Assembly: GCA_963966315.1 (NCBI GenBank)
Contig: CAWZYX010000002.1
Coordinates: 36,295 to 100,294, forward strand
From: an uncultured Winogradskyella sp.
GTDB taxonomy: Bacteria; Bacteroidota; Bacteroidia; Flavobacteriales; Flavobacteriaceae
Length of the DNA stretch: 64,000 nt
Reading direction: 5' to 3'
The notes below the pieces were generated by a model that saw only the letters and a list, made by a program, of their open reading frames with translations, was not told where the DNA came from and ran no database searches. Of this stretch, positions 13,798 to 64,000 are shown one piece after another (the first letter of the stretch is position 1; every line of letters begins with the position of its first letter). Both the position numbers and the translations under genes were made by a program.

Positions 13798-13812
13798 AAA
13801 ATTAAAATTCTA

Positions 13813-47439: not shown

Positions 47440-47556
47440 GTATTCGGACTTAGGTTTGTTGTTGAATTGACCTCGTGAACCACAAAACTATAGGTTTATT
47501 GGTTGTATTCAAAAGTTAGTTTTACCTTTAATCTATGTTTAACAAAAGTGCCTGTT

Positions 47557-48279
47557 ATGAAGTCTTATTTCCTATACGCCATCTTATTATTAATATTAGT
47601 TTCTTGTATTTCAGACCCCGAAAAACCTCAACTGGATTACAACTCCTATGGTGTAGAGGACTTTCCAAGTGTAGAAGCAAATATTGTTTTTGTCAAAGGC
47701 GAAGGGGCGCAATTTGAAAAGATAAATAAGGTGATAGTAGACAGCACTCTCGCTTATTTGATGCAGGAGGAACCCGTAGACTCCATACAGGAAGCATTGG
47801 AAAAATTTGTGAAGAATTACCAATCGTTTAAGAAGGATTTTCCGGAATCCGATCAGGTTTGGGAATTGTCTGTTGAGACCGAGGTGGTTTTTCAGACCGA
47901 AACCGTCATAACCTACTCCATCAACACCTACTCCTACACAGGTGGCGCCCATGGCAATGACCATATTACATTGCTCAATTTTAATGCCTCCAATGGTGAC
48001 CTAATTGGAATTTCTGATTTAATCAGAAAGCCCCGGGAATTTAAAGCCATTGCCAGACAAAAATTTATTGAATCTCAGAAAGCCACCAATGAATCGTTTC
48101 GTATGGAGGACTATTTCTTTGGCGAAGATTTTGAATTACCGGAAAATATGGGTTATAGCGAGGATGGCTTTGTACTACTTTACAATGTTTATGAAATCGC
48201 TTCCTATGCACAGGGATATACTGAATTTGCCATTCCATTCGAGGATTTAGACGGCATTCTAAAATTTAGTCCTTATTAG
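47557..48279 (+). CDS. DUF4163/DUF3298 (RsiV-like) lipoprotein
   Basis: Lipobox LLILVSC. YSYTGGAHGN is the hallmark DUF3298 motif. The ORF-table start (47503) is probably too far upstream, and the internal Met at 47557 precedes the signal peptide. Confidence 0.65.
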   Translation: MKSYFLYAILLLILVSCISDPEKPQLDYNSYGVEDFPSVEANIVFVKGEGAQFEKINKVIVDSTLAYLMQEEPVDSIQEALEKFVKNYQSFKKDFPESDQVWELSVETEVVFQTETVITYSINTYSYTGGAHGNDHITLLNFNASNGDLIGISDLIRKPREFKAIARQKFIESQKATNESFRMEDYFFGEDFELPENMGYSEDGFVLLYNVYEIASYAQGYTEFAIPFEDLDGILKFSPY

Positions 48280-49519
48280 TTTGGGCAGTTAACTTTCTAA
48301 TGATGGGTTCAACAGTTAAGCCCTGTCCCACGATTGATACGACGACCACCACATAGGTAATCACCAGAAACAATTCTCTGTGCATTTCCTTTGTTAAACT
48401 CAAGGCCAGAGCTATTGAAATTCCACCTCTTAAGCCTCCCCAGGTCATTATGAGATTCGTTTTCGGAACAAAATCCAGCTTTTTTGCAAAAAACCTTACA
48501 GGTAGCCAAAGCGAAATGTAACGACATAATAAAATAAGTGGAATGGCCAGTAAGCCAGCATACAGGTAATTTTTACCAAAAGTGAGCACCAGCATTTCCA
48601 TACCAATCATAACAAAAAGTATCGTATTTAATAATACGTCGATCAGTTCCCAGAATTTATCTACATAGGCTTCCGTTACCTCACTCATCGCAGCATTTCT
48701 GGCTTTGTCATTTCCTACCATCAAACCGGCAGCAACCATGGCTAAAGGAGCAGACAAATGAAACTGATGAGCAAGGGCAGTACCTCCCATAACTGCAGCA
48801 AGCGTGAGAATGACCTCGATCTCGTAGCTATCAATGGAGCGCATCAGGCGAAAGGTAATCCAGCCCAATCCCAGACCAAGTAAGAGTCCACCAATGACCT
48901 CCTGTCCAAAAAGCGTAAGAATATCGGAAAAATCCAACGGAACATTTGGCTGAGCTGCGATCGCATAAATAGTGAGGAATATCACTACCCCTACGCCATC
49001 GTTAAACAGGGATTCTCCTACAATTTTTGTTTCCAGTTTCTTAGGAGCTCCTGCTTTTTTAAGAATTCCCAATACAGCAATGGGGTCTGTTGGTGAAATC
49101 AAGGCTCCAAAAAGTAGACAATTAATATAGCTGACTTCAAATCCCATTGCACCCAAGACATAAAAAATGACGGTCCCAACCAGAAATGTCGATACTAGCA
49201 CCCCAAAGGTAGCGAAAGCCAATATTGGACCCCTTTGCACCTTTAGTTGTGAGAAATTGGTATGTAAGGCCCCTGCAAAAAGCAAAAAGCTCAACATTAT
49301 ATCCAGCAACACGGTTTCAAAATCAATGCTTTGTATGAACTCCTTTTCTTTTATAAGCAGGGTGTTATCAAACTGTCCAATAAATAGAATAACAGCGGTA
49401 AAAACGATAGTGATGACCATAAGTCCAATGGTAATTGGAAGCTTTAAAAACTTCACGTTGAGATATCCAAAAAGAGCGGATAAAACAATTAATACTGTAG
49501 CGATAGAGTAATAATCCAT
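48266..49519 (-). CDS. Na+/H+ (cation:proton) antiporter, CPA1/NhaP type
   Basis: 417 aa. 11-12 TM helices. Conserved ...ALISPTDPIAV... antiporter motif. Confidence 0.8.
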   Translation of the reverse strand: MDYYSIATVLIVLSALFGYLNVKFLKLPITIGLMVITIVFTAVILFIGQFDNTLLIKEKEFIQSIDFETVLLDIMLSFLLFAGALHTNFSQLKVQRGPILAFATFGVLVSTFLVGTVIFYVLGAMGFEVSYINCLLFGALISPTDPIAVLGILKKAGAPKKLETKIVGESLFNDGVGVVIFLTIYAIAAQPNVPLDFSDILTLFGQEVIGGLLLGLGLGWITFRLMRSIDSYEIEVILTLAAVMGGTALAHQFHLSAPLAMVAAGLMVGNDKARNAAMSEVTEAYVDKFWELIDVLLNTILFVMIGMEMLVLTFGKNYLYAGLLAIPLILLCRYISLWLPVRFFAKKLDFVPKTNLIMTWGGLRGGISIALALSLTKEMHRELFLVITYVVVVVSIVGQGLTVEPIIRKLTAQTNKD

Positions 49520-49633
49520 AAGACAAGAAACCTGTTTATTGCTGTTCTAGTTTAGTATATATTTAAGGAAGTTAACTGATTAACCATTACCTTGCGGCAT
49601 AAAATTAGTGCAATAAAACGATTCCCCGCTAGA

Positions 49634-49990
49634 ATGAAAAAAATTTACTTCTTAAGCAGTTGCAGCACCTGCTCCAGAATCATGAATTCCTTAAACCTGG
49701 ATAGTAGTTTTGAACAACAGGACATAAAAATTGAGCCTCTGAACGAAGTACAGCTTGAAGAGCTGCACCAACTGTCAGGAAGTTACGAAGCGTTGTTTAA
49801 CAAAAGAGCTCAGCTGTATAAAGAGCGCCAGTTAAAAAACCGAGAGCTTCATGAAACAGATTATAAGGTACTTCTCCTTGAACACTATACTTTTTTAAAA
49901 CGTCCTGTTTTTGTGATCGGTGAGCAGATTTTCATTGGCAATAGCAAAGCAACGATAGAGGCCCTTGAAAAACGGTTAAATGAACAGTAG
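49634..49990 (+). CDS. ArsC/Spx-family thioredoxin-fold protein (YffB-like)
   Basis: MKKIYFLSSCSTCSRI has the N-terminal C-x2-C of the ArsC family. The start is moved to the internal Met, and the upstream 14 codons are probably not translated. Confidence 0.65.
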   Translation: MKKIYFLSSCSTCSRIMNSLNLDSSFEQQDIKIEPLNEVQLEELHQLSGSYEALFNKRAQLYKERQLKNRELHETDYKVLLLEHYTFLKRPVFVIGEQIFIGNSKATIEALEKRLNEQ

Positions 49991-50888
49991 AAAGACCGCT
50001 TTAGTAGCCTTGTTTATGGTTCAGCTACTATATGGTCTCAACTATACCTTTGCCAAAACGGCCATTAATCAGGGGTTTGTAAAGCCTTTTGCCTTTGTCA
50101 TTCTAAGGGTGGTTGGCGCTGCAGTCCTGTTCTGGCTACTCGGCTTGTTTCTACCTAAAGAGAAGATTGAAAAACGCGACTTCATAAGGTTTTTGGTGGC
50201 CGCTGTATTTGGAGTGTTTATCAATATGATGCTGTTTTTGAAAGGTTTGGAGTTAACAAGTCCAATTCACGCCTCTTCCATCATGACCATTGTTCCTGTT
50301 ATCATTCTCATCCTTTCGCATTTTATTCTGAAAGAATCGATCACTCCTACCAAACTGGCAGGAGTTATTATGGCTTTTGCCGGTGCATTGGTACTAACCA
50401 TTTACGGTAAATCCATAAGGGCAGCAGACAATGTGGTACTGGGGAATATTTTTATTTTTATCAATGCGGTATCCTACAGCATTTACGTGATTCTCATCAA
50501 ACAACTCACCGCCAAATACCACCCGTTGACCTTTATCAAATGGTTGTTTTTATTCGGAACAGTACTGGTTTTCCCTTTTGGATATACCGATCTGAAGGCT
50601 ATTGATTTGGCGACTTATACACCTTACGCGTATTTCAGTATTGGGTTTGTTGTGATCGGGGCCACTTTTGGCACCTACTTACTCAATCCACTTGCATTAA
50701 GTAAACTTAAAGCCTCAACGGTTGGAGCTTTTATTTATTTGCAACCTGCCATCGCCGGTCTCTTCGCTGTGCTTATGGGTGCAGATTCGATAGATCTGAT
50801 AAAGCTCACAGCCATGCTCATCATCTTTACCGGCGTTTATCTGGTCAGTTTTCAGACTAAAAAAGCTCCTCTGGATTCAAAGACTTAG
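49980..50888 (+). CDS. EamA-family (DMT superfamily) transporter
   Basis: 302 aa. 10 TM helices in two EamA repeats. Confidence 0.8.
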   Translation: MNSRKTALVALFMVQLLYGLNYTFAKTAINQGFVKPFAFVILRVVGAAVLFWLLGLFLPKEKIEKRDFIRFLVAAVFGVFINMMLFLKGLELTSPIHASSIMTIVPVIILILSHFILKESITPTKLAGVIMAFAGALVLTIYGKSIRAADNVVLGNIFIFINAVSYSIYVILIKQLTAKYHPLTFIKWLFLFGTVLVFPFGYTDLKAIDLATYTPYAYFSIGFVVIGATFGTYLLNPLALSKLKASTVGAFIYLQPAIAGLFAVLMGADSIDLIKLTAMLIIFTGVYLVSFQTKKAPLDSKT

Positions 50889-51348
50889 GCACCACACCGT
50901 GTTTACGAGTGTCTTCTCTGGTAAGTATTTTAAACCCATTGGATTTTGGAAATTGTATAGCGAGATGCATTAAATTTTCCGGCAATGCCGTTAGCTTACG
51001 CGTTTTTGTGTTGATCCAGGCGCCAAGCATTTTGCAGTGTGCCAAATGTTCTCCCTTATGATTGTAAAAATTGTGGTCAAAGCTAAAGAACATCCCATCT
51101 TCACTCAGGCCCGATATTTCTATGGTAACCGTAATAGGTGTCCCCAGAAAGGACTCTTTAAAATAATACATATGCTCGTAAAAGACCACCGGGCCAAGTG
51201 CCTGTTCCTTGATGGTCTTCATACTAAAGCCGTGATCGCTAAAGAAGGCCATACGGGCATGGCTCATAAAATTGGTGTAGGCAGAATTGGCCAGATGGGC
51301 ATTAGCATCTACATCGCTCCATCTTATTTCAAATTGTTTGGTGTACAT
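50857..51348 (-). CDS. Hot-dog-fold acyl-CoA/acyl-ACP thioesterase (4HBT/YbgC-like)
   Basis: 163 aa. FEIRWSDVDANAHLANSAYTNFM is a typical 4HBT start. The 3' end overlaps the eamA gene end by about 30 nt on the opposite strand. Confidence 0.7.
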   Translation of the reverse strand: MYTKQFEIRWSDVDANAHLANSAYTNFMSHARMAFFSDHGFSMKTIKEQALGPVVFYEHMYYFKESFLGTPITVTIEISGLSEDGMFFSFDHNFYNHKGEHLAHCKMLGAWINTKTRKLTALPENLMHLAIQFPKSNGFKILTREDTRKHGVVPKSLNPEELF

Positions 51349-51469
51349 TTCTTACTGTTGAAGTGCAAAAATAAGAATTCTCCTCCTTGAGCCAAGGGCG
51401 ATATAAGTGGAAGAATAAGATGCTTCCTGTCCCAATTTTGTACATTTGCTCTTTAATCATTTGAGATTC

Positions 51470-52327
51470 ATGATACAGTCAATGACGGGGTATGGAAAAA
51501 CAATTTTACAGCTGCCCACCAAAAAGATTTCCATAGAAATAAAATCTTTGAATAGTAAAAATTTAGATGTCAACGCCCGCATGCCATCTGCCTATCGTGT
51601 AAAAGAACTCGAGATCAGAAAACGCATTGCCAACCGCCTTAAACGGGGCAAGGCAGACTTTTCATTGTATGTTGATCTGACAGGGGAAGAAACTTCTTCC
51701 AGCATCAACAAAACGATTGTACGCTCGTATATGAATCAATTGAGTGAGCTCTCTACTGCCTCTGAAAGTGAGTTATTACAAATGGCCATCAGACTTCCTG
51801 ACGCCATTAACACGGAACACGACGATGTGGATGAAGACGAATGGGCAATTCTCTCTCAGGGGATTGACGACACCCTCGACAAGATCATCACCTACCGAAA
51901 AGACGAAGGGCAAATTTTGAAACAGGACTTTGAGGAACGCATTCTGGTGTTGGAAGAGTTGCTTCAAAAAGTTGAAGAAATTGATCCGGATCGCATCAAA
52001 CAAGTTCGTGAAAAGCTCGAAAAAGGAATTAGTGAGATCAAGGAAAAGGTGGACGAAAACCGATTTGAACAGGAACTTATTTATTACATTGAAAAATTTG
52101 ACATCACTGAGGAAAAGGTGCGATTAAAAAACCATCTGCAGTATTTTTCAAAAGCCCTGAACACTAATGATTCCAATGGGAAGAAGCTCGGGTTCATCTG
52201 TCAGGAAATAGGCAGAGAGATCAACACCATTGGATCCAAAGCCAATTATGCCCCCATGCAACAACTAGTGGTTCAAATGAAAGACGAGCTGGAAAAAATA
52301 AAAGAGCAACTGTTAAACGTCCTTTAA
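51470..52327 (+). CDS. yicC: YicC/YloC-family stress-induced protein
   Basis: MIQSMTGYGK... is the canonical YicC N-terminus. The C-terminal DUF1732 part ends ...KEQLLNVL. Start moved to the internal Met. Confidence 0.85.
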   Translation: MIQSMTGYGKTILQLPTKKISIEIKSLNSKNLDVNARMPSAYRVKELEIRKRIANRLKRGKADFSLYVDLTGEETSSSINKTIVRSYMNQLSELSTASESELLQMAIRLPDAINTEHDDVDEDEWAILSQGIDDTLDKIITYRKDEGQILKQDFEERILVLEELLQKVEEIDPDRIKQVREKLEKGISEIKEKVDENRFEQELIYYIEKFDITEEKVRLKNHLQYFSKALNTNDSNGKKLGFICQEIGREINTIGSKANYAPMQQLVVQMKDELEKIKEQLLNVL

Positions 52328-52336
52328 GACTGACAC

Positions 52337-52909
52337 ATGGATAAAGGTAAACTAATCGTGTTTTCTGCTCCTTCCGGTTCGGGGAAAACAACCATTGTAC
52401 GTCATTTGCTCAACTGTCCGGAATTGAATCTGGAATTTTCCATTTCGGCCACCTCGCGTGAAAAAAGAGGCAAGGAGCAGGATGGAAAAGATTATTACTT
52501 TCTGAGCCTCGAGGAGTTTAAAGACAAGATCAGAAATAACGAATTCCTGGAATGGGAGGAGGTGTATAGAGACAACTTTTACGGCACCCTTAAATCTGAA
52601 GTGGAACGCATTTGGGCTAAAGGCAAGGACGTTATTTTTGATATTGATGTCACCGGAGGCTTACGCATCAAGAAAAAATTTCCCAAAGAAACGCTGGCCA
52701 TCTTTGTGAAACCACCCAATCTCAATGAGCTCATTAGAAGACTCAAGGAACGTGGTGAGGAAAGTGAGGATAAAATAAATATGCGCGTCTCCAAAGCTCC
52801 GGTTGAGTTAGCAACTGCTCCTCAGTTTGATGAGATCGTGGTAAACTCAGAATTGGATCAGGCCTTGAAAGATGCCTATGCACTTGTTTCCAAATTTATT
52901 AGTTCATAA
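52337..52909 (+). CDS. gmk: Guanylate kinase
   Basis: 190 aa. P-loop SAPSGSGKTT. The yicC-gmk adjacency is widely conserved. Confidence 0.95.
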   Translation: MDKGKLIVFSAPSGSGKTTIVRHLLNCPELNLEFSISATSREKRGKEQDGKDYYFLSLEEFKDKIRNNEFLEWEEVYRDNFYGTLKSEVERIWAKGKDVIFDIDVTGGLRIKKKFPKETLAIFVKPPNLNELIRRLKERGEESEDKINMRVSKAPVELATAPQFDEIVVNSELDQALKDAYALVSKFISS

Positions 52910-52911
52910 CA

Positions 52912-53490
52912 ATGAAGATCGGTCTGTTTTTTGGCACCTTCAATCCTATTCATGTAGGGCATCTGAGCATTGCCAACTACATTGTAGAACACAGTGATCT
53001 CAATGAGGTCTGGCTAGTGGTAACCCCGCTTAGTCCCTTCAAAAAGAAAAGTAGTTTGCTCGACAACCACCAGCGACTCGAAATGGTTTATCGTGCCACT
53101 GAAGACTACCCCAAGCTCAGACCCAGCGATATTGAGTTTAATCTTCCAGAGCCGCACTTCACCATTCATACCCTGGTCTATCTTCAGGAAAAATTTCCAC
53201 AGCACAGTTTTGCCCTTATCATGGGTGAAGACAACCTTAGTAGTTTCCATAAATGGAAAAACTACGAACAGATCCTCGAGGAACACGATATTTATGTGTA
53301 CCCCAGAATTAATACTAAACCTCCCAAAGAGGAGTTCATCGATCACCCTAGAATAGTTAAAGTGAACGCACCGATTATTGGGATCTCCTCGACCTTGATT
53401 AGAAATGACCTGAAGGACGGAAAAAATATAAGACCCATGTTGCCTCATAAGGTATGGGAATATCTCGATGAAATGAACTTTTACAGGTAG
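52912..53490 (+). CDS. nadD: Nicotinate-nucleotide adenylyltransferase
   Basis: 192 aa. GLFFGTFNPIHVGHL (HxGH nucleotidyltransferase motif) and ISSTLIR near the C-terminus. Confidence 0.9.
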   Translation: MKIGLFFGTFNPIHVGHLSIANYIVEHSDLNEVWLVVTPLSPFKKKSSLLDNHQRLEMVYRATEDYPKLRPSDIEFNLPEPHFTIHTLVYLQEKFPQHSFALIMGEDNLSSFHKWKNYEQILEEHDIYVYPRINTKPPKEEFIDHPRIVKVNAPIIGISSTLIRNDLKDGKNIRPMLPHKVWEYLDEMNFYR

Positions 53491-53513
53491 TTCGAATTTC
53501 TATTCCCGAGGCA

Positions 53514-53873
53514 TTAAAAATGATAAAAGGCATCTTTTAAATGCTCAATTCTTAACTCGTCCTTGTTTTTAACGATGGCAATAATGTCGAAACGCACTTC
53601 AAGGTCCAGGGCTTCCTCGTTGATGTAGGCATCAACCGCTTTAACCAGATTTTTAATCTGTTTAGGTTTGACAAAGTCCTGCGGGTTCCCAAAATCATCG
53701 GTTGATCGCGTCTTGACTTCAACAATGGCCAGAATATCCTCTTTCTGAGCCAGAATATCAATTTCGGCCTTATCGTATCTGAAGTTCCTGGACCTGATCT
53801 GATATCCGTGTTCTTTAAGGAAGTTTACCGCCAGATCTTCGCCTTCCTTACCTAGTTGGTTGTGTTGGGCCAT
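53514..53873 (-). CDS. yraN: YraN-family (UPF0102) putative endonuclease
   Basis: 119 aa. GEDLAVNFLKEHGYQIRSRNFRYDKAEIDILAQKEDILAIVEVKTR matches the YraN core. Confidence 0.8.
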   Translation of the reverse strand: MAQHNQLGKEGEDLAVNFLKEHGYQIRSRNFRYDKAEIDILAQKEDILAIVEVKTRSTDDFGNPQDFVKPKQIKNLVKAVDAYINEEALDLEVRFDIIAIVKNKDELRIEHLKDAFYHF

Positions 53874-53887
53874 GCTATGAAAATCAA

Positions 53888-54895
53888 CTAGTCTAAAAAG
53901 TTAACCGATGCATTGGTTTTGGTGACCTTTAATTCAATGCTTCTTCCTAAAATGAGCGCCCGGTTGTCCTGTTCATGACCCGCCGGCATATTGAAAGCAA
54001 TGGGAAAATCGTACTCCGCAAGTGCATCGATGATAAGTTCTTCAACAGAACTCCCCCACTTGGTGGTGTTCTTCCTCAGTTTGCTCATGTCGCCAACGAT
54101 GAGCCCTGCACACTGCTCAAAATAGCCTGCTCGCTTCAAACTCTGAAGCATTCGATCAATGTGGTACTTGTACTCCCCGATCTCTTCTATAAAAAGAATC
54201 TTTCCATGGGTATCAATACTGGTCTCAGATCCCAGCATAGTATGCAGGATGGTCAAATTACCCCCTACCAGCTGCCCCTGTGCCTCACCTGCCCTGTTAA
54301 AGGTTGATCCTTCTAACTGATAGCTTAGGGCATTCCCAAAAACAGCATTCTTAAACGTACTGATACTGGTTTTTATTTCATCAGGAGGGTCTGACAGACT
54401 GGTACACATTAAGGCATGAATGGATTGGTACCCCTCATTATGCACTTGATTGTGCAGAGCAGTAATATCGCTATAGCCAATGATCCATTTGGGCCTTTCT
54501 TTAAACCTCGAATAATTCAATTTATCAAGTATTCTTACAGTCCCATACCCCCCGCGGGCACACCAGATGGCACTAATATTGGGGTCGTCCATAACCCTCT
54601 GCAAGTCTGAGGCGCGCTGCTGGTCTGTTCCTGCAAAATGGTGATTCTGTTCAAAAATATGATCTCCCACCTGCACCTTGAGTCCCCATGACTCGAGCAG
54701 TGATTTTGCTTTATTGATTTCACCCTCTCTGCTTTTTAAGATTCCGGAAGGAGCCACTATGGCTACCGTGTCTCCCGCTTTGAGGTAGGGCGGCTGGCTA
54801 AGACTAGAACGCTTCATGTATTCGGTTTTTTGATAGGTTTGACTGTAATTAACCCCACTGAATAGCAAGACGACTATTGCGAATATGGTTCTCAT
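53888..54895 (-). CDS. LD-carboxypeptidase (peptidase S66)
   Basis: 335 aa. Signal peptide. GDTVAIVAPSG and GYSDITAL (catalytic Ser) motifs. Confidence 0.85.
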   Translation of the reverse strand: MRTIFAIVVLLFSGVNYSQTYQKTEYMKRSSLSQPPYLKAGDTVAIVAPSGILKSREGEINKAKSLLESWGLKVQVGDHIFEQNHHFAGTDQQRASDLQRVMDDPNISAIWCARGGYGTVRILDKLNYSRFKERPKWIIGYSDITALHNQVHNEGYQSIHALMCTSLSDPPDEIKTSISTFKNAVFGNALSYQLEGSTFNRAGEAQGQLVGGNLTILHTMLGSETSIDTHGKILFIEEIGEYKYHIDRMLQSLKRAGYFEQCAGLIVGDMSKLRKNTTKWGSSVEELIIDALAEYDFPIAFNMPAGHEQDNRALILGRSIELKVTKTNASVNFLD

Positions 54896-54997
54896 AAAAC
54901 TTTATGTTGATTGCCCGGCCGGGCTCAGGTAAATGTACATTTTTTTTCTGTTTAGCTGATGGAATCACTAATTTTGTCCCCTTAACAAACATCACCG

Positions 54998-57061
54998 ATG
55001 AACAGCTCTCAACGCTATACCATTACAGCGGCACTGCCCTACACCAACGGACCAATCCATATCGGCCATCTGGCAGGGGTGTATGTCCCCGCAGACATTT
55101 ATGCCCGTTTCCTCAGACTACAGGGGCACGATGTGGCTTTTATCTGTGGAAGTGACGAGCACGGTGTACCAATTACGATCAAGGCCAAACGAGAGGGGGT
55201 GTCCCCACAGGATATCGTTGATAAGTACCATAAGATCATTAAAGACTCCTTTGTGGATTTTGGGATTTCCTTCGATAATTACTCCCGAACCTCCAATAAA
55301 AACCATCACGATACCGCATCAGCCTTTTTCAAGAAGCTTTATGATGATGGAAAATTTATAGAAGAAACCTCGGAGCAATTTTATGATGCTGAAACCCAAA
55401 TGTTTCTGGCCGATCGTTTCATTATCGGCACCTGCCCCAAGTGTGGCTATGAGGAGGCTTATGGCGACCAGTGCGAAAATTGCGGAACCAGCCATAATGC
55501 TACCGATCTCATTAACCCAAAATCGGCCATAACGGGTAATGCTCCCACCTTAAAATCTACCAAGCACTGGTACCTGCCGTTGGAGGACTATCAGGACTTT
55601 TTAAAAGAATGGATTCTGGTAGGGCATCAAAAAGATTGGAAACCCAATGTACTTGGCCAGGTAAAATCCTGGATCGATGACGGATTGCGCCCGCGAGCGG
55701 TGACTCGCGATCTGGACTGGGGCATCCCTGTACCTGTTCCCGGGGGCGAAGGCAAAGTACTTTATGTATGGTTTGATGCGCCTATTGGTTATATCTCCGC
55801 TACCAAGGAGTGGGCTGCGGAACAGGGGAAAAACTGGGAAGACTACTGGAAGGATGAAAACACCAAGCTGGTCCATTTTATTGGAAAGGATAATATTGTC
55901 TTTCACTGCATCATTTTCCCGGCCATGCTCAAAGCACATGGAGATTACATTATGCCGGAGAATGTTCCTGCCAACGAATTTCTGAATTTAGAGGGGAGAA
56001 AACTATCGACCTCCAAAAACTGGGCGGTTTGGTTGCCAGACTACCTCAAGGATTTTCCCGGACAGCAAGACGTACTTAGGTATACCCTCACTGCCAACGC
56101 ACCGGAAACCAAAGACAACGATTTTACCTGGAAAGACTTTCAGGCTCGCAATAACAACGAGCTGGTTGCCATCTTTGGGAATTTCATTAACCGAGTGGTT
56201 GTCCTTACCAACAAATACTATAATGGGGTAGTTCCCAAAGCAGATACCCTCTTGCAAACAGACGAAGACACACTGGCTGCGTTAAGGGCTTATCCGGCCG
56301 TTATCGCCAGCTCCATTGAGCGTTTTCGTTTCAGGGAAGCCTCTCAGGAACTCATGAATCTGGCGCGTTTAGGCAACAAGTATCTGGCCGATGAAGAACC
56401 CTGGAAAACGATAAAAACAGACGAGGCACGTACCCGTACCATTATGAACGTAGCCCTTCAGATTGCCGCAGGATTAACAGTTTTATGCGAACCGTTTTTA
56501 CCATTTACGGCCCATAAACTTCGTTCTGTTTTAAATCTTACAGCAGACAGCGAATTGTCCTGGAATACTGTGGGTGAGAAGGTCGCATTGATACCGGCCG
56601 GCCATAAAATTGGCAAGGCCGAACTGCTATTCTCCAAAATAGAAGACAGTGCCATTCAGGTGCAGGTCGAAAAATTGGACCGTGGTTTGCAGGAAAATCT
56701 GCAGAGTGAAAAGACGGCCGAACCACAAAAACCGGAAATTACATTTGAGGATTTTACCAAACTAGACATGCGGGTAGGAACCATCCTGGAGGCAGAAAAA
56801 ATGCCCAAAACCAAAAAGCTTCTGGTGTTGAAGGTGGATACTGGCATCGATGTGCGCACCATCGTATCAGGGATTGCTGAAAGTTTTACTCCGGAGGAGG
56901 TAATAGGAAAACAGGTGACTGTTTTGGTGAATCTGGCACCTCGCAAACTGCGCGGTGTTGAAAGCGAGGGTATGATCCTCATGACTGAAGATGAACAGGG
57001 AAATCTGGTTTTTGTCAATCCTGAAAAGGAAACAACCCCCAATGGATTGAAGATTAGTTAA
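54998..57061 (+). CDS. metG: Methionine--tRNA ligase (with C-terminal tRNA-binding EMAP domain)
   Basis: 687 aa. HIGH ([14 protein letters not shown]), a zinc knuckle (CPKCGY...CENCG), KMSKS-equivalent (KLSTSK), and a C-terminal OB-fold. Confidence 0.95.
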
Positions 57062-57109
57062 GTTTTTTTGGCATCGTTTTTGTGACAATTTATCACAAAA
57101 TTAGAGGCT

Positions 57110-59470
57110 ATGACGAGAATTACTGTAATCCCCGCCCAACTAACTAGTTTCCAATCTTTTCTTTACATCATTTTTACCAGCATTTTAAGCCTTTCTCTTT
57201 TGACTGCTCAGGAGGAACGCGACCTTGTTGACGCCTTTATCGATCATACCGATAATGCCCGTGAGGTGATCTACCTGCATCTGAACAAGTCTACCTATAT
57301 CAAGGGGGAGTCTGTTGGCTTTACAGCCTATGTATTGGATAAGAAAGATAAGATGCCCTCCCTGCTCACCACCAACCTCTATGTGAGTATCGAGGATATG
57401 GACCAAATCCCCATTGTCCAGCAACTGCTTAAGGTAGAGAACGGCGTGGCCTCCAATGTCTTTGATATCGATGATAACTTTAGCACCGGATCCTATCTGG
57501 TGAAGGCCTATACCAACTGGTCTCGTAACTTTAAAGAACCTAATTACTTCTCCGCCACCATTAAGATTATCGATCCTGCTACCGATGCCTTTGTCGATAA
57601 TGAGCGCGTAGAGAATGCCATCGATGCACAGTTCCTGCCGGAGAGCGGACACCTGCTGGCCGATGTGGTCAATAAAGTTGGGGTTGTCCTTAAAGATCCT
57701 AAAGGCTATGGGCTGGCTGATGCCTCCGGCAAAGTCCTTGACAGGAATGGGAAAGTACTCACTACTTTTCGGGTCAACCATCTGGGAATTGGGCAGTTCC
57801 TGCTCAAACCCTCGGTAGGAGACACCTTTAAGGTCGTTGTGAGCTATAACTATAAAGACTATGAGTTTTCACTTGATCAAAGTGTGCAGCCCATTGGCCT
57901 TATCCTCTCCACCTCAGTTCGCAATGAGCAGCTCACCCTTAGTGTACATACCAACCAGCGCGGACTCCAGCAATTCAAAGACCAGAATTTTCTCTTGGGC
58001 TTTCACAACGGATCAGATCTGCAAACCATTAAGCTCAGCTTTGATAAGCAAACTTCAATCCATACAATTTTTGACCTCAACCAAATGCCACCCGGAGTTA
58101 CCGTCTTTACACTCTTTAATGAGAACAGCCAGCCCATTGCCGAACGACTCTTCTTTAACTACAAGGGGCTTACTATTCACCAACTGTCCGATCTTAGTAC
58201 TACTATGGTCGAAAACGACTCTATCGATATCTCCCTGGCCTTTAAGACCATTGACCCTTCTAAGTTTCATAACATCTCCGTTTCTGTGCTCCCTGCCGAT
58301 ACCAAATCTTATAAACACCATCACAGCCTGGTCTCCTACAACTACCTGAAGCCCTACATCAATGGGCCTATCGAACAAGCCAAATACTACTTTAATGAGG
58401 TAACTCCCCAGGTAAAAGCCGATCTGGACATGCTGCTGCTTACCCAAGGCTGGTCCTCCTACAACTGGAACCAGATCTTTGATAACAAGCACAGCCTGCC
58501 TTTTGAATTTGAACGAGGCCTGAGCCTGAAAGCTAATGTCAATGGCAATCTGCGCAAGCAAAAAACCTTCGTTGTACACCCCCTGGAAGATTCACAGCAA
58601 CCGGTCTACGTGCAGCTCGATGACCAACAGAACAGTTTTCAGATGGATCAGATTTTTTTAGAAGACAAGACCTCCATTGCCCTCTCTGAAATCGATAACA
58701 AGGGTAAAATGGAACCTGCCAAGGTCTACCTGCAATTCTTCCCCAGTACCATCCCCAGACTTCAAATACCCCAATACCCTCTTGATCCCAAGCCACAGTA
58801 CAACCTTAATACCAGCTTTGAGCAAAATGTCATGTCTACTAGCACACTCGATCAAACACAGCAACTCGATGAGGTGGTGATTACCGCTGACCCCAACGAT
58901 TATAAGACCAGACTTCGAGACCTAAACCGCGAATCTAAAGGGATTGCCAGATTAGCTACAGAAGGGGACCTCAATCGTTATTTCAACGTTTTGGAATGGA
59001 TTAGAGGGCGACATGGCTTTTGGGCCAAAAGAACATTATGGACTGATGTATATATTAACGAGGAACAGCTTACAAAATTATCAGCAAAAACCTACCTGGA
59101 AACAATTAGTCTAAGTGATGTGGATTTCGTGGAATTCCTACCCAATTCTGCAAGAGGATTTAGACTAAAACTTCATATTGACTGGGAGAAGGTCAAGCTT
59201 AATAAATATGGGCCTGCAGCTAAGACCTTCGAAGCCCCACTCACCTTTAGTTCAGCAAAACAGTTTTACACCCCGGTGTACCGCTACCGTGGGGATACCT
59301 TCTATAAGAATTTTGGCACCATTGCCTGGGAGCCTGCTATACAGCTTGATACTGATGGTAAGACCCGGCTAAAGATCCAAAAACCCATTGTACCCATCAC
59401 CCTCTTTATTGAAGGCATGGACCACCTGGGGCAGCCCATCTTTTATGAACATACCTTAACTATCAATTAA
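57110..59470 (+). CDS. Secreted approximately 785-aa protein, tandem paralog 1 (MG2-like N-terminus, plug-like C-terminus; family not identified)
   Basis: Signal peptide. N-terminal EVIYLHLNKSTYIKGESVGFTAYVLD resembles the alpha-2-macroglobulin MG2 strand motif. C-terminal QLDEVVITADPN...VDFVEFLP resembles a TonB-plug-like fold. Internal bases 57512..59283 are identical to copy 2. Confidence 0.5.
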   Translation: MTRITVIPAQLTSFQSFLYIIFTSILSLSLLTAQEERDLVDAFIDHTDNAREVIYLHLNKSTYIKGESVGFTAYVLDKKDKMPSLLTTNLYVSIEDMDQIPIVQQLLKVENGVASNVFDIDDNFSTGSYLVKAYTNWSRNFKEPNYFSATIKIIDPATDAFVDNERVENAIDAQFLPESGHLLADVVNKVGVVLKDPKGYGLADASGKVLDRNGKVLTTFRVNHLGIGQFLLKPSVGDTFKVVVSYNYKDYEFSLDQSVQPIGLILSTSVRNEQLTLSVHTNQRGLQQFKDQNFLLGFHNGSDLQTIKLSFDKQTSIHTIFDLNQMPPGVTVFTLFNENSQPIAERLFFNYKGLTIHQLSDLSTTMVENDSIDISLAFKTIDPSKFHNISVSVLPADTKSYKHHHSLVSYNYLKPYINGPIEQAKYYFNEVTPQVKADLDMLLLTQGWSSYNWNQIFDNKHSLPFEFERGLSLKANVNGNLRKQKTFVVHPLEDSQQPVYVQLDDQQNSFQMDQIFLEDKTSIALSEIDNKGKMEPAKVYLQFFPSTIPRLQIPQYPLDPKPQYNLNTSFEQNVMSTSTLDQTQQLDEVVITADPNDYKTRLRDLNRESKGIARLATEGDLNRYFNVLEWIRGRHGFWAKRTLWTDVYINEEQLTKLSAKTYLETISLSDVDFVEFLPNSARGFRLKLHIDWEKVKLNKYGPAAKTFEAPLTFSSAKQFYTPVYRYRGDTFYKNFGTIAWEPAIQLDTDGKTRLKIQKPIVPITLFIEGMDHLGQPIFYEHTLTIN

Positions 59471-59518
59471 TATGAGAGCATCAACCATTTTATTTCTATG
59501 TATTTGTAATAAGTAACT

Positions 59519-61867
59519 ATGACCACCTTTCGATCTTACAATATCCTGGTTAAGACCTTGGGCCTAATAGCTTTCTGGCTCTTGGCCCTTGCTACTATAC
59601 ATGGTCAGCAATCTACAGCTATTGTAGATGCCTTTAATGAGCATACTGCTGATGCCCGGGAGGTCATTTACCTGCATGTTAATAAATCAAGCTACATTAA
59701 AGGTGAGTCCATTGGCTTTACCGCCTACGTTCTGGATAAAAACACCAAGCGACCCGCCCTGCTTACCACCAACCTTTATGTGAGCCTCGAGACCATGGAA
59801 CAAAAACCCCTGAAGCAACTCATGCTTAAGGTTGAAAACGGTATCGCTTACAATATCTTTGAAATTGATGATTCCTTTGTCACCGGATCCTATCTCCTGA
59901 AGGCCTACACCAACTGGTCTCGTAACTTTAAAGAACCTAATTACTTCTCCGCCACCATTAAGATTATCGATCCTGCTACCGATGCCTTTGTCGATAATGA
60001 GCGCGTAGAGAATGCCATCGATGCACAGTTCCTGCCGGAGAGCGGACACCTGCTGGCCGATGTGGTCAATAAAGTTGGGGTTGTCCTTAAAGATCCTAAA
60101 GGCTATGGGCTGGCTGATGCCTCCGGCAAAGTCCTTGACAGGAATGGGAAAGTACTCACTACTTTTCGGGTCAACCATCTGGGAATTGGGCAGTTCCTGC
60201 TCAAACCCTCGGTAGGAGACACCTTTAAGGTCGTTGTGAGCTATAACTATAAAGACTATGAGTTTTCACTTGATCAAAGTGTGCAGCCCATTGGCCTTAT
60301 CCTCTCCACCTCAGTTCGCAATGAGCAGCTCACCCTTAGTGTACATACCAACCAGCGCGGACTCCAGCAATTCAAAGACCAGAATTTTCTCTTGGGCTTT
60401 CACAACGGATCAGATCTGCAAACCATTAAGCTCAGCTTTGATAAGCAAACTTCAATCCATACAATTTTTGACCTCAACCAAATGCCACCCGGAGTTACCG
60501 TCTTTACACTCTTTAATGAGAACAGCCAGCCCATTGCCGAACGACTCTTCTTTAACTACAAGGGGCTTACTATTCACCAACTGTCCGATCTTAGTACTAC
60601 TATGGTCGAAAACGACTCTATCGATATCTCCCTGGCCTTTAAGACCATTGACCCTTCTAAGTTTCATAACATCTCCGTTTCTGTGCTCCCTGCCGATACC
60701 AAATCTTATAAACACCATCACAGCCTGGTCTCCTACAACTACCTGAAGCCCTACATCAATGGGCCTATCGAACAAGCCAAATACTACTTTAATGAGGTAA
60801 CTCCCCAGGTAAAAGCCGATCTGGACATGCTGCTGCTTACCCAAGGCTGGTCCTCCTACAACTGGAACCAGATCTTTGATAACAAGCACAGCCTGCCTTT
60901 TGAATTTGAACGAGGCCTGAGCCTGAAAGCTAATGTCAATGGCAATCTGCGCAAGCAAAAAACCTTCGTTGTACACCCCCTGGAAGATTCACAGCAACCG
61001 GTCTACGTGCAGCTCGATGACCAACAGAACAGTTTTCAGATGGATCAGATTTTTTTAGAAGACAAGACCTCCATTGCCCTCTCTGAAATCGATAACAAGG
61101 GTAAAATGGAACCTGCCAAGGTCTACCTGCAATTCTTCCCCAGTACCATCCCCAGACTTCAAATACCCCAATACCCTCTTGATCCCAAGCCACAGTACAA
61201 CCTTAATACCAGCTTTGAGCAAAATGTCATGTCTACTAGCACACTCGATCAAACACAGCAACTCGATGAGGTGGTGATTACCGCTGACCCCAACGATTAT
61301 AAGACCAGACTTCGAGACCTAAACCGCGAATCTAAAGGGATTGCCAGATTAGCTACAGAAGGGGACCTCAATCGTTATTTCAACGTTTTGGAATGGATTA
61401 GAGGGCGACATGGCTTTTGGGCCAAAAGAACATTATGGACTGATGTATATATTAACGAGGAACAGCTTACAAAATTATCAGCAAAAACCTACCTGGAAAC
61501 AATTAGTCTAAGTGATGTGGATTTCGTGGAATTCCTACCCAATTCTGCAAGAGGATTTAGACTAAAACTTCATATTGACTGGGAGAAGGTCAAGCTTAAT
61601 AAATATGGGCCTGCAGCTAAGACCTTCGAAGCCCCACTCACCTTTAGTTCAGCAAAACAGTTTTACACCCCGGTGTACCGTTACCGCGGCGATCGGTTCT
61701 ATAAGAACTTTGGTACAATAGCCTGGCAGCCTGCTCTGCAGCTCGATACTGATAGCAAGACCAGCTTTAAAATCCAAAAACCCATTGTGCCCATCAAACT
61801 CTTCATTGAAGGTATTACAAAGTCTGGACAGGCCGTATACTCAGAAAAATCAATTATTTTTAATTAA
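59519..61867 (+). CDS. Secreted approximately 785-aa protein, tandem paralog 2
   Basis: 782 aa. Same architecture. The N-terminal 130 aa and C-terminal 60 aa are diverged from copy 1, while the central 590 aa are identical. Confidence 0.5.
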   Translation: MTTFRSYNILVKTLGLIAFWLLALATIHGQQSTAIVDAFNEHTADAREVIYLHVNKSSYIKGESIGFTAYVLDKNTKRPALLTTNLYVSLETMEQKPLKQLMLKVENGIAYNIFEIDDSFVTGSYLLKAYTNWSRNFKEPNYFSATIKIIDPATDAFVDNERVENAIDAQFLPESGHLLADVVNKVGVVLKDPKGYGLADASGKVLDRNGKVLTTFRVNHLGIGQFLLKPSVGDTFKVVVSYNYKDYEFSLDQSVQPIGLILSTSVRNEQLTLSVHTNQRGLQQFKDQNFLLGFHNGSDLQTIKLSFDKQTSIHTIFDLNQMPPGVTVFTLFNENSQPIAERLFFNYKGLTIHQLSDLSTTMVENDSIDISLAFKTIDPSKFHNISVSVLPADTKSYKHHHSLVSYNYLKPYINGPIEQAKYYFNEVTPQVKADLDMLLLTQGWSSYNWNQIFDNKHSLPFEFERGLSLKANVNGNLRKQKTFVVHPLEDSQQPVYVQLDDQQNSFQMDQIFLEDKTSIALSEIDNKGKMEPAKVYLQFFPSTIPRLQIPQYPLDPKPQYNLNTSFEQNVMSTSTLDQTQQLDEVVITADPNDYKTRLRDLNRESKGIARLATEGDLNRYFNVLEWIRGRHGFWAKRTLWTDVYINEEQLTKLSAKTYLETISLSDVDFVEFLPNSARGFRLKLHIDWEKVKLNKYGPAAKTFEAPLTFSSAKQFYTPVYRYRGDRFYKNFGTIAWQPALQLDTDSKTSFKIQKPIVPIKLFIEGITKSGQAVYSEKSIIFN

Positions 61868-61884
61868 CCATTCTAACCGATTCT

Positions 61885-63999
61885 ATGCGCATGATCATAA
61901 GAAAAACCATTTTAATCCATCTCAGCTTATTTATTTTATTTCAGCTGCAGGTTCCTGCACAGGCAGAATTCATTACAGATTCATTTGAGGACTATAACGC
62001 TATTGCAGAAGAGGTCATCCATCTGCACCTGAACAAATCGACTTACATCAAAGGAGAATCCATAGGGTTTACGGCCTATGTGCTTGACAAGCATGAAAAA
62101 CTACCCGCCTTAATGACCAAGAATCTGTACGTAAGTATAGAAGATAAGGATGAGAATCCCATTACCCAGAAGCTGATTGAGGTCAATAACGGCGTTGCCC
62201 ATAACAGCTTCATGATCGATGAAGAGTTTAATAGTGGAAGTTATCTTGTCAAAGCCTATACCAATTGGTCTCGCAACTTTTCACCGAGGAACCAGTTCAC
62301 AGCCAAAATTGAGATCATCGATCCCAAGACCGACGAATACATTTCCTATGAAACCATTGAGGAGGAACTGGATGTGCAGTTTCTTCCGGAAAGTGGTCAT
62401 TTACTCATGGGCACACTTAATAAAATTGGCGTTATCATCAAAGACCAGAAAGGTTACGGCGTTGCCGGAGTGAGTGGGGAGGTAGTGGATGATGAACAAA
62501 ATACCGTCAGTAGCTTTACCGTGAACGATCTGGGTATTGGGAGTTTTGTCATCACCCCTGAGGCCGATCGTCGCTACACGGTTCAATTAAGCTACAGACT
62601 TAAGGAATACCGAAAACCGCTGGATCTGCAGAAGGAACACACCGGGATAGTTTTAAGTACAACCAATAAGAACGATGAATTATACATAGCGATAAAGACC
62701 AATCAAAATAGTTTGAAACAGTTTCAGGGCCAGGTATTTTATCTCAGTTTACACAATGGAAATGAGATGGAACTACTACCTTTCTCATTTAACAACAAGA
62801 CAACGGTCAACCAGATCATCGATCTAAAAAGCCTGCCTCCCGGAGTCCAAACGATTACTGTTTTTAACCATCAAAAGAAGCCTTTGGCAGAGCGATTGGT
62901 CTTTAATTACAATGGATTGAAGAAAGCAACCATGGCTTTAGCAAAACAAGAGGTGCAGGGAAATTCTATGCAGATCACTCTACATACCGCCCAACTCAAT
63001 TCTAAAGACTTTAACAACCTGTCCGTTTCGGTCCTTCCTCAACAAACAAAGTCGTACAGGCACCATCATAATTTACTATCCAAAGTGTATCTGCAGCCCT
63101 ACATCAAAGGAACTGTGGAACGGGCGGGCCATTACTTTACAGCGGTCACACCTGAAAAAAAGTTCGATATGGACCTGTTGCTACTCACACAAGGATGGAG
63201 CTCTTACAGCTGGAACGATATTTTTAATCCCAACAGGTCTCTGCCTCATGCGTTTGAACAAGGTATTAGCATAAAGGCCAATATTAATAACCGTAAGCGC
63301 TCCAAGCCTTCATTTTTACTGCACTCCATGAATAATGCAGAACCGGTGATTGTTGATATTGAGGAAGGAATGAACAGTTTTACCATAGAGGATCTGTTTT
63401 TGAAGGAAAAGGACAGTATTTATATTTCCGAGATCGTTTCCAAACAAAAAATAGTACCTGCCCAACTGTTTCTGCAGTCCTTCCCCAGTGGTGTCCCCAG
63501 AGTAAAGGTACCTTCCACGGTCTTGGCACCCAAGCCCGATTACGGATACACTGCTCCTCTGGACAACGTAATGTATTCGGAACTTCTTGATGGGGTACAA
63601 CAGTTGGATGAGGTGGTCCTCACCACTGAACTGGACCGCGTAAGAGCACGAACTCAGGAACTTTCAAAAAACCGATTTGGCAGAGTCAAGGTCGTTTCGC
63701 AAACAGACCGTTATGCTTATCTCACTATAGAACAGTATTTGCAGTCTCTGGGATTGGTGGTCGAATCCACACCAGACGGAATGTCCATAAACAGACCCGG
63801 GAGAGGAGTGTACAGGAGTCCTGCAAGCGCTGGAGCGCAGCGTATGGTGACCGGTATGGCCATTTTTTTTAATGATGTACAGTTATTCGACACTTCCTAT
63901 TTATATAATTTACCTCTCAACGAAATTGAATTTGTGGAGGTTAACACTACAGGTATGGGCATGGGATTCAGAGCACCCGATGGTTATGTTAAGATCTAC
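61885..63999 (+). CDS. Secreted protein of the same family, diverged tandem paralog 3 (runs off the window end)
   Basis: Open frame from ATG 61885 to the window end. Signal peptide (MRMIIRKTILIHLSLFILFQLQVPAQA). Collinear motifs (HLHLNKSTYIKGESIGFTAYVLDK, YLVKAYTNWSRNF, LLLTQGWSSY, QLDEVVLTTE) and a clearer plug-like C-terminus (FFNDVQLFDTSYLYNLPLNEIEFVEV). Not in the ORF table because it has no stop in the window. Confidence 0.5.
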   Translation, partial: MRMIIRKTILIHLSLFILFQLQVPAQAEFITDSFEDYNAIAEEVIHLHLNKSTYIKGESIGFTAYVLDKHEKLPALMTKNLYVSIEDKDENPITQKLIEVNNGVAHNSFMIDEEFNSGSYLVKAYTNWSRNFSPRNQFTAKIEIIDPKTDEYISYETIEEELDVQFLPESGHLLMGTLNKIGVIIKDQKGYGVAGVSGEVVDDEQNTVSSFTVNDLGIGSFVITPEADRRYTVQLSYRLKEYRKPLDLQKEHTGIVLSTTNKNDELYIAIKTNQNSLKQFQGQVFYLSLHNGNEMELLPFSFNNKTTVNQIIDLKSLPPGVQTITVFNHQKKPLAERLVFNYNGLKKATMALAKQEVQGNSMQITLHTAQLNSKDFNNLSVSVLPQQTKSYRHHHNLLSKVYLQPYIKGTVERAGHYFTAVTPEKKFDMDLLLLTQGWSSYSWNDIFNPNRSLPHAFEQGISIKANINNRKRSKPSFLLHSMNNAEPVIVDIEEGMNSFTIEDLFLKEKDSIYISEIVSKQKIVPAQLFLQSFPSGVPRVKVPSTVLAPKPDYGYTAPLDNVMYSELLDGVQQLDEVVLTTELDRVRARTQELSKNRFGRVKVVSQTDRYAYLTIEQYLQSLGLVVESTPDGMSINRPGRGVYRSPASAGAQRMVTGMAIFFNDVQLFDTSYLYNLPLNEIEFVEVNTTGMGMGFRAPDGYVKIY

Positions 64000-64000
64000 T

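Follow-up and report, generated by a model that had tools for sequence, protein, structure and literature searches.

A perfect 1,772-nucleotide repeat between tandem MG-like/plug-like genes of Winogradskyella: probable assembler homogenisation over a real history of recombination

Concerted evolution and gene conversion between bacterial paralogs are exemplified by tufA/tufB of Salmonella, babA/babB of Helicobacter pylori, and opa and pilE/pilS of Neisseria, and within the same phylum as the organism studied here domains have reportedly been rearranged among surface proteins of Porphyromonas gingivalis. Two protein classes are also close to our subject: the alpha-2-macroglobulins (A2Ms), both bacterial (E. 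coli ECAM/YfhM, Salmonella A2M of PDB entry 4u48, the YfaS type) and eukaryotic (A2M, C3, TEP, CD109), which are built on an array of MG beta-sandwiches, and the TonB-dependent transporters (BtuB, FhuA, RagA/SusC), which contain a plug fold. Here we describe a tandem array of genes whose products share both the MG array and the plug fold, at the 3' end of a 64,000-nucleotide (nt) stretch of DNA from an uncultured Winogradskyella sp. (contig CAWZYX010000002.1; this whole stretch is called the window, and coordinates are those of the window unless stated otherwise). The first two genes of the array contain a long core that is identical at every base, which the original prediction had read as very recent gene conversion or segmental duplication, or else as an assembly artefact. 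We find that the perfect identity is probably an artefact laid over a real and ordinary history of recombination between the copies.

Copies 1, 2 and 3 of the array (c1, c2 and c3) all lie on the + strand, at 57110..59470 (c1, 786 amino acids (aa)), 59519..61867 (c2, 782 aa, identical to database protein P0002) and 61885..64000 (c3, which runs off the end of the window with 705 aa visible; the full protein, P0006, has 802 aa). Gene position p in c1 is window position 57109+p. The window covers the first three genes of a five-gene array, as the complete locus on related contigs encoding P0001 has five tandem paralogs of 786, 782, 802, 817 and 832 aa after metG. Positions 57512..59283 of c1 (+; gene positions 403-2174) and 59909..61680 of c2 (+) match at 1,772 of 1,772 positions. 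The offset is 2,397 nt throughout, and no exact run at this offset is longer. Identity drops on both sides: proper alignment gives 66% for the 5' ends of the two genes (402 and 390 nt) and 74% for their 3' ends (187 nt). Both open reading frames (ORFs) are intact, and c3 is diverged from c1 (59% nucleotide and 44% amino-acid identity). The core, its boundaries and offset, the diverged termini and the diverged third copy are thus all as originally reported, and a chance origin of a 1.8-kb exact repeat is impossible. A repeat listing of the window contained only a 300-nt three-copy family (100/76/68%); the 1,772-nt exact repeat had no entry of its own.

The same locus has been assembled many times from the same clone. 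Strain I, as we call the clone shared by the window and 12 contigs from JGI, is the best supported, and its 12 JGI contigs show no flank differences over the compared 10 kb and 2 kb. Against one of them (L001, 3.49 Mb) the window has 0 mismatches over 47110-64000 except at 215 sites within 58384-59283 and eight within 60000-60168; three others (L002-L004) show the same 223 differences, and, over 31.4-53.8 kb, further JGI contigs and one from Logan match the window at 99.99% identity. Because of these flank and upstream identities, the window can be assigned to the strain I clone, from which it differs only inside the two paralog cores. At the protein level, the best match to c1 is P0001, which is identical at both ends and only 45-58% identical over aa 600-750. 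Twelve contigs encode P0001 (five exceed 1 Mb) and 11 encode its partner P0121; the window versions, P0002 and P0127 (the latter being c1 with another start), occur together on just one contig, of NCBI/ENA and 101,913 bp long, and exact look-ups of the window c1 and of P0002 in the contig index gave no hit. Among GTDB representative genomes the closest is that of W. aurantiaca, with 59% amino-acid identity, which means that the species of the window has no representative there; near-identical DNA nevertheless occurs in many JGI metagenome contigs and one Logan run (SRR22534032).

In strain I itself, c1 and c2 are 35-75% identical over gene positions 1-390, 91-100% identical per 100 columns over 391-1790 (a core of ~1.39 kb), ~50% identical over 1791-2075, 80-86% over 2076-2275 and 55% in the last ~100 columns. 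The ~50% region, which we call segment B, codes for the plug; its c1 version (B1, L001:11791-12118) and its c2 version (B2) have equal net length. The longest exact stretch between the two strain I copies is 612 nt, at gene positions 663-1274 (57772..58383, +; c2 counterpart 60169-60780), and this is the undisputed homogenised core.

To compare the copies base by base, mosaic maps were built on the 403 sites at which strain I c1 and c2 differ, with the strain I c1 base scored as type 1 and the c2 base as type 2. The window c1 is type 1 over gene positions 1-662, type 2 over 1275-2118 and type 1 again over 2175-2355, and the window c2 is type 2 over 1-402, type 1 over 513-662 and type 2 over 1275-2355. 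Every one of the window-specific differences (223/223) swaps one copy's base for that of the other and makes the copies alike, and all 215 c1 differences from L001-L004 are to the c2 allele. Neither window copy has a private single-nucleotide polymorphism (SNP), nor any of those private to a second strain, strain II, described below. The c1 segment with c2-type bases (58384..59227, +; gene positions 1275-2118) is type 2 at all 190 of its informative sites, includes segment B and is found in this assembly only, while the c2 segment with c1-type bases (60019..60168, +; gene positions 513-662; eight informative sites) has the opposite donor. Full identity of the tract needs both patches, one with c2 as donor (1275-2118) and one with c1 as donor (513-662), which between them remove the difference at 198 of 198 internal informative sites and at none beyond the tract. 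Strain I has exact in-register shared stretches of 20 nt or more nowhere but within gene positions 403-2174, and the outermost of them, 403-512 (110 nt) and 2119-2174 (56 nt), are the exact limits of the identical tract in the window. The 106-nt window-specific c1 junction had no match in the JGI metagenome contigs, a collection that holds the clone many times over, and a protein search with the B1+v1 segment returned only one JGI fragment and one protein from another species.

We put the probability that the perfect 1,772-nt identity was produced by assembler homogenisation at roughly 60%, and favour it over a very recent real conversion. Bulge removal and the traversal of simple loops are assembler behaviours that collapse near-identical tandem repeats in de Bruijn graphs. 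At this locus, a graph with k <= 55 would merge the two copies at the 110-nt and 56-nt anchors, the bubbles between the anchors would be removed to leave a single collapsed path, and the collapsed node, traversed twice around a short loop (v1, spacer, u2), would give the window sequence. The window state is probably artefactual because it occurs in one assembly only, because all of its changes are homogenising and because the limits of the tract coincide with the outermost shared anchors. Two other contigs of strain I background, also free of private SNPs, have alternative chimeric paths. One is a 3.4-kb contig of JGI 3300055309 (L006:51-3372) with a c1/c2 fusion, type 1 to position 1551 and type 2 from 1731, followed directly by c3, which would be either a four-copy array formed by unequal crossover or an assembler path that skips one copy; the other, the short contig L083, has a type-2 patch at 1275-1731. 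The occurrence of such mosaics on short fragmentary contigs suggests that assemblers mis-path at this array.

Underneath this putative artefact, the recombination between copies 1 and 2 is, as their discordant divergence argues, real. In strain I, and at the level of amino acids, the core (aa 135-596) of c1 is 98% identical to that of c2 and 66% identical to the W. aurantiaca orthologue, whereas the N-terminal segment (aa 36-134) is 70% identical to c2 and 82% to W. aurantiaca; the corresponding values are 52% and 19% for the plug (aa 597-704) and 76% and 60% for the C-terminal segment (aa 705-786). Since the N-terminal segment is nearer to W. aurantiaca than to c2, its divergence is at least as old as the species split and the core has been homogenised. 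Both marks of gene conversion, divergence that is discordant between segments and a high-identity tract between divergent flanks, are therefore present in strain I. Ordinary homologous recombination between direct repeats keeps the ~1.4-kb core near-identical but leaves the N-terminal, plug and C-terminal segments diverged, and it has given rise to different mosaics in different strains.

Just such a different mosaic is seen in strain II (L005/L085), whose flanks differ from those of strain I by ~1 SNP per kb in addition to clustered patches in metG. The strain II proteins are well represented (P0122 on four contigs and P0128 on five, mostly >1 Mb). Its c1 is type 1 over gene positions 1-570, type 2 over 654-2111 and type 1 over 2118-2355, and its c2 is type 2 over 1-402, type 1 over 513-662, type 2 over 1275-1338, type 1 over 1347-1407, type 2 over 1425-1551, type 1 over 1731-2111 and type 2 over 2118-2355, with one type-1 site at 2189. 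The longest exact stretch between the two strain II copies is ~590 nt (roughly 705-1293). The plug segment has been reciprocally exchanged between the copies, in both of which the right junction falls within one and the same 6-nt interval, and the two copies have six and 14 private SNPs; so narrow a junction, together with these SNPs, makes assembler mis-phasing an unlikely cause. An intramolecular double crossover between direct repeats, by excision and re-integration, would yield a reciprocal swap of this kind. The comparison of related strains that the original prediction had proposed yields both a copy number, five in the full locus, and breakpoints that differ between strains.

The strain I/II differences in metG are clustered at 55610-55900 and 56410-56500 (10, 16, 23 and 18 per 100 nt, as against ~1 SNP per kb elsewhere), and these patches look like imported recombination tracts in the housekeeping gene that adjoins the array. 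Adjacent copies in W. echinorum KCTC 22026 share a 1.74-kb tract at 92% identity (L008:9644-11377 and 12170-13882), but this tract is shifted: it takes in the 3' end of one gene, the intervening spacer and the initial 1.3 kb of the gene that follows. Partial homogenisation between tandem copies is thus recurrent in this family.

Several considerations weigh against assembler collapse as the source of the perfect identity. As a reading of the sequence pattern, collapse through the 56-nt anchor requires k <= 55. Within 1275-2118 every site took the c2 allele, and not a random mix. Two Mb-scale JGI contigs, L084 and L086, are themselves imperfect, in that they switch strain inside c1 and carry frameshifts, so the reference assemblies are also open to doubt. 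These two contigs (3.54 Mb and 2.99 Mb; L084:7591-12040 and L086:7593-9952) have an upstream flank of strain I (0 mismatches in 7,500 nt) and a downstream flank of strain II (0 in 2,409 nt); their c1 has alternating alleles and is split by 1-nt frameshifts, L084 has in addition a ~309-nt deletion in the plug segment of c2, and the two contigs represent either real recombinants between strains or chimeric consensus sequences of strains that co-exist.

The same considerations leave some room for a genuine, very recent gene conversion, which we judge somewhat unlikely, while ranking it first among the alternatives. In this scenario, break or gap repair copied the 3' core and plug of c2 into c1, and a second short patch was copied from c1 to c2 at 513-662. 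Gap repair that used the core and the 56-nt homology to mend a double-strand break in B1 would produce precisely the window c1; every substituted base comes from the clone's own other copy, and the tract ends lie within exact homologies (110 nt and 56 nt) that are long enough for RecA-dependent recombination. Both ORFs remain intact, concerted evolution of the core is independently evident, and the natural mosaics of strain II involve the same sites, including an exchange of the same B segment. The c1-type allele pattern at 513-662 of the window c2 is also that of strain II c2 (L005), and as the two strain II copies are alike at 513-570, homogenisation at these very sites does occur in nature. 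Gene conversion between bacterial paralogs can, moreover, outpace the SNPs expected in 40 kb, so clean flanks are possible. However, the flanks are essentially undiverged, and two events with opposite donors would have had to erase all 198 sites between the outermost anchors and none outside them. A single contig shows the resulting state, JGI metagenome contigs containing the same clone lack the junction, and the other mosaics that lack private SNPs on the same background are found on short fragmentary contigs. Of the original proposal of gene conversion, then, the recombination between copies 1 and 2 stands, but the full 1,772-bp identity is peculiar to one assembly, the 12 contigs of the same clone having 612 bp of exact identity and a divergent plug. 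Conversely, the assembly artefact that had been offered as the alternative is, given the graph-collapse pattern, the likelier source of the extra identity, but not of the recombination itself.

Whichever account of the perfect identity is correct, the array could be under selection for a quasi-programmed diversification, in which the plug cassette is shuffled among paralogs to vary an interaction surface (for example in phage or partner recognition). The plug is the fastest-evolving part, with 12-20% identity among paralogs as compared with 40-98% elsewhere and the lowest column conservation over aa 481-700; it is also the segment exchanged between strains I and II, and copy number varies from one to five among genera. 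Against this, only two of the five copies take part and there are only two well-supported haplotypes. The hallmarks of programmed variation (recombinase or reverse transcriptase, inverted or template repeats) were not found at the array: the window contains no inverted repeats of 40 nt or longer, and there is no mobile element, recombinase or reverse transcriptase near the array, the Pfam assignments of neighbouring genes within 10 kb being housekeeping ones. The locus belongs to the core genome, it is syntenic with housekeeping genes, and no evidence of surface exposure was found. We consider selected diversification improbable, and the antigenic role suggested in the original prediction is unsupported.

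Two further explanations of the repeat have very little chance of being correct. A recent segmental (whole-gene) duplication whose ends diverged afterwards, as also proposed originally, would account for tandem direct copies with a constant 2,397-nt offset and a perfect core, but we reject it because the ends are 66-74% identical and the core 100%, because the N-terminal segment of c1 is nearer to the W. aurantiaca orthologue (82%) than to c2 (70%), and because the same clone elsewhere has both copies with divergent plug segments; no process saturates the ends and yet spares 1.8 kb. Nor can an assembler have joined strain II c1 to strain I c2, both of which carry B2, even though the two strains co-occur in some samples and L084 and L086 switch between them inside c1: this chimera is excluded by the allele maps, in which the window c1 has none of the six strain II private SNPs (414, 459, 469, 691, 704, 1895) and is type 1 at 654-662 and type 2 at 2118, where strain II is the opposite, and the window c3 and flanks are those of strain I.

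The architecture of the array proteins was examined in an AlphaFold2 model of c1 computed with a 63-sequence alignment (predicted local distance difference test (pLDDT) 83.8, predicted template modelling score (pTM) 0.75). A signal peptide (57110..57208, +) ends in ...LLTA/Q and has no cysteine; cleavage is expected after the A and before Q34 from the A-Q rule of Bacteroidetes, Q34 is at least 90% conserved in the alignment, and the signal peptides of the copies end in A-Q. The first domain, an N-terminal MG2-like beta-sandwich (57263..57574, +; aa 52-155), is the most conserved part of the family and is followed by consecutive beta-sandwiches at approximately aa 165-255, 265-350 and 361-395, a short helical region at aa 407-456 that is the only helical stretch, and another sandwich at aa 471-545. 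A disordered, low-pLDDT linker (aa 571-595) leads to an alpha/beta domain at aa 597-700, and the protein finishes with a sandwich at aa 705-783. The predicted fold thus contains both an MG array and a plug fold, and it bears out the MG2-like/plug-like label of the original prediction.

At the end of the linker is the sequence TQQLDEVVI (58856..58882, +; c1 aa 583-591), which corresponds to a family consensus of V-Q-x-L-[DE]-E-V-V-V and is the most conserved motif of the C-terminal half (L586 in 63/63 sequences, E588 in 60/63, V589 in 56/63). The L-[DE]-E-V-V-V motif resembles a TonB box, and this known consensus suggests that the protein may interact with TonB. The plug-like alpha/beta domain that follows it in c1 (58898..59209, +) corresponds to the hypervariable segment B, which differs between assemblies and is swapped in strain II. 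In c1 and c2 this domain is ~40 aa shorter than in c3-c5 and is without the G-x-I-K-I-Y end motif; that of c3 is longer and more canonical.

In sequence-based searches, Pfam MG2 was matched only below threshold (14-27 bits against a cut-off of 32.8, in the ten members scanned and the window proteins), and Pfam Plug and TonB_dep_Rec_b-barrel were undetected at E <= 0.05-0.1 in 13 members, so that of the two checks originally proposed the structure prediction revealed the MG array and plug and the profile searches gave no more than the sub-threshold MG2 match. PDB sequence searches with the single protein and with a profile gave only noise, and in Pfam there was no bait, CUB or receptor-binding domain in the array protein, in which the disordered linker at aa 571-595 precedes the plug-like domain. 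Cysteine is absent from c1, c2, c3 and c5, and hence so are a thioester and a lipobox. The c1 model has no outer-membrane barrel, only ~90 residues following the plug-like domain. No NCBIfam model was matched at E <= 0.1, and there is thus no match to a C-terminal sorting domain (TIGR04183/TIGR04131 type) of the type IX secretion system (T9SS). On these grounds we rejected a thioester-type, protease-trapping A2M (no cysteine, no thioester domain), a TonB-dependent transporter (no barrel), and a T9SS cargo or lipoprotein (no signature); for want of a lipobox, a barrel and a sorting-domain match, the surface location originally assumed is unsupported, and the putative location is periplasmic.

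Tentatively, then, the protein may be periplasmic, with the MG array as its scaffold and the plug module as the part that engages TonB or a transporter. A broader proposal, which we consider doubtful, is that the family represents an undescribed periplasmic class in which a barrel-less plug with its own TonB box is mounted on an A2M-like MG scaffold and could work as a TonB-coupled module independently of any classical transporter, and in which the cassette is shuffled between copies, by reciprocal swap in strain II and by conversion in the present clone, such that partner binding is diversified at the strain level.

The family is a large one. With clusters formed at 50% identity, a profile search recovered 12,783 of them when E <= 1e-3 was required and 4,821 when E <= 1e-30 was. 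A scan of GTDB representatives recovered 337 relatives, and the genera to which these belong include Winogradskyella, Gelidibacter, Polaribacter, Psychroserpens, Tenacibaculum, Aquimarina and Dokdonia. Family genes follow LD-carboxypeptidase (-) and metG (+) on the + strand, in one to five tandem copies, and this order is widely conserved; a highly conserved HDAC-like gene lies directly after the array or, in some genera, directly before it. This is accordingly a large, syntenic and functionally uncharacterised family of marine Flavobacteriaceae proteins of ~800 aa. A literature search on MG2/plug proteins in Flavobacteria or Bacteroidetes, and on barrel-less plugs, yielded nothing relevant, and no paper describing the architecture was found. 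The suggestion that the family is undescribed is therefore correct as far as function is concerned, but its members are numerous and already in databases as 'hypothetical' or 'MG2 domain-containing'.

The window has the same gene order, with an LD-carboxypeptidase gene on the minus strand and metG (methionine--tRNA ligase; 54998..57061, +), the conserved upstream neighbour outside the array, preceding c1. The 48-nt metG-c1 spacer contains a palindrome, TGTGAcaatttaTCACA, at 57083-57099, ~10-25 nt 5' of the c1 start codon; it is not present in the c1-c2 spacer and may be a candidate regulator binding site. Scans for sigma-70 promoters and terminators gave only background levels, and Rfam and tRNA scans of the window were empty. 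The minus strand at 41432-43816 encodes a protein of 794 aa whose N-terminal beta-propeller is of the PorZ type (Pfam PF21544 in the contig index). PorZ is a component of the T9SS, and this system is probably present in the organism, as judged from the PorZ-type protein; despite this gene, the array proteins are without a recognisable T9SS sorting domain. An intact 822-aa TonB-dependent receptor (Plug and barrel) is encoded at 38215-40683 (-), adjoining recO. Its counterpart is split into 184 aa and 630 aa in a JGI contig (L087:13152-15601) and is 816 aa in a Logan contig, which suggests frameshift or start-site variation between assemblies. A very large ORF at 34268-38212 (+) encodes 1,314 aa, as compared with 1,312 aa and a lamin-tail (LTD) domain in related contigs; the exact 1,314-aa product, with the ATG start used here, was not on record in the look-up.

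These results carry a caution for draft and metagenome contigs, in which an assembler can make a perfect repeat from merely similar paralogs, and they illustrate that a comparison of assemblies of the same clone can expose manufactured repeats without recourse to reads. At this locus the 1,772 perfect bases were probably manufactured, or are at best a private and very recent event. Real recombination, including a reciprocal segment swap, is nevertheless documented between tandem paralogs in strains that are ~99% alike. The remaining interest is in a widespread, uncharacterised combination of an MG array with a barrel-less plug, and in the strain-level swap of its plug cassette: the family, for which an MG array, a TonB-box-like motif and a plug without barrel are predicted, comprises ~12,800 clusters (50% identity), none with a characterised member. 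If the putative TonB binding were real, the clients of TonB would extend beyond barrel transporters.

Set against the A2Ms, the array proteins are about half as long (~800 aa compared with 1,500-2,000 aa) and have neither the CxEQ thioester nor a lipobox. The c1 model is without even the helical thioester domain that proteins of the thioester-less YfaS type retain, and without a CUB domain or recognisable bait region, whereas the TonB-box-like motif and plug-like domain are additional. In comparison with TonB-dependent transporters, the 22-strand barrel is missing and the protein ends in a beta-sandwich ~190 aa past the motif; the plug is at the C-terminal end of the MG array, not at the N-terminus, and in c1 and c2 it is shortened by ~40 aa. 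Unlike the converting gene pairs of Salmonella, Helicobacter and Neisseria, the array has no archive of silent cassettes and no evidence of selection for variation, one strain has a reciprocal rather than a one-way exchange, and the extreme state in the window may be computational. That state resembles assembler collapse in that the copies are identical between the outermost shared k-mers, the unique flanks and spacer are kept, and the result is a mix of existing alleles with no new bases. Like those gene pairs, however, c1 and c2 have a near-identical core between divergent ends, segments that are discordant in their divergence, and breakpoints in short stretches of identity that differ between strains.

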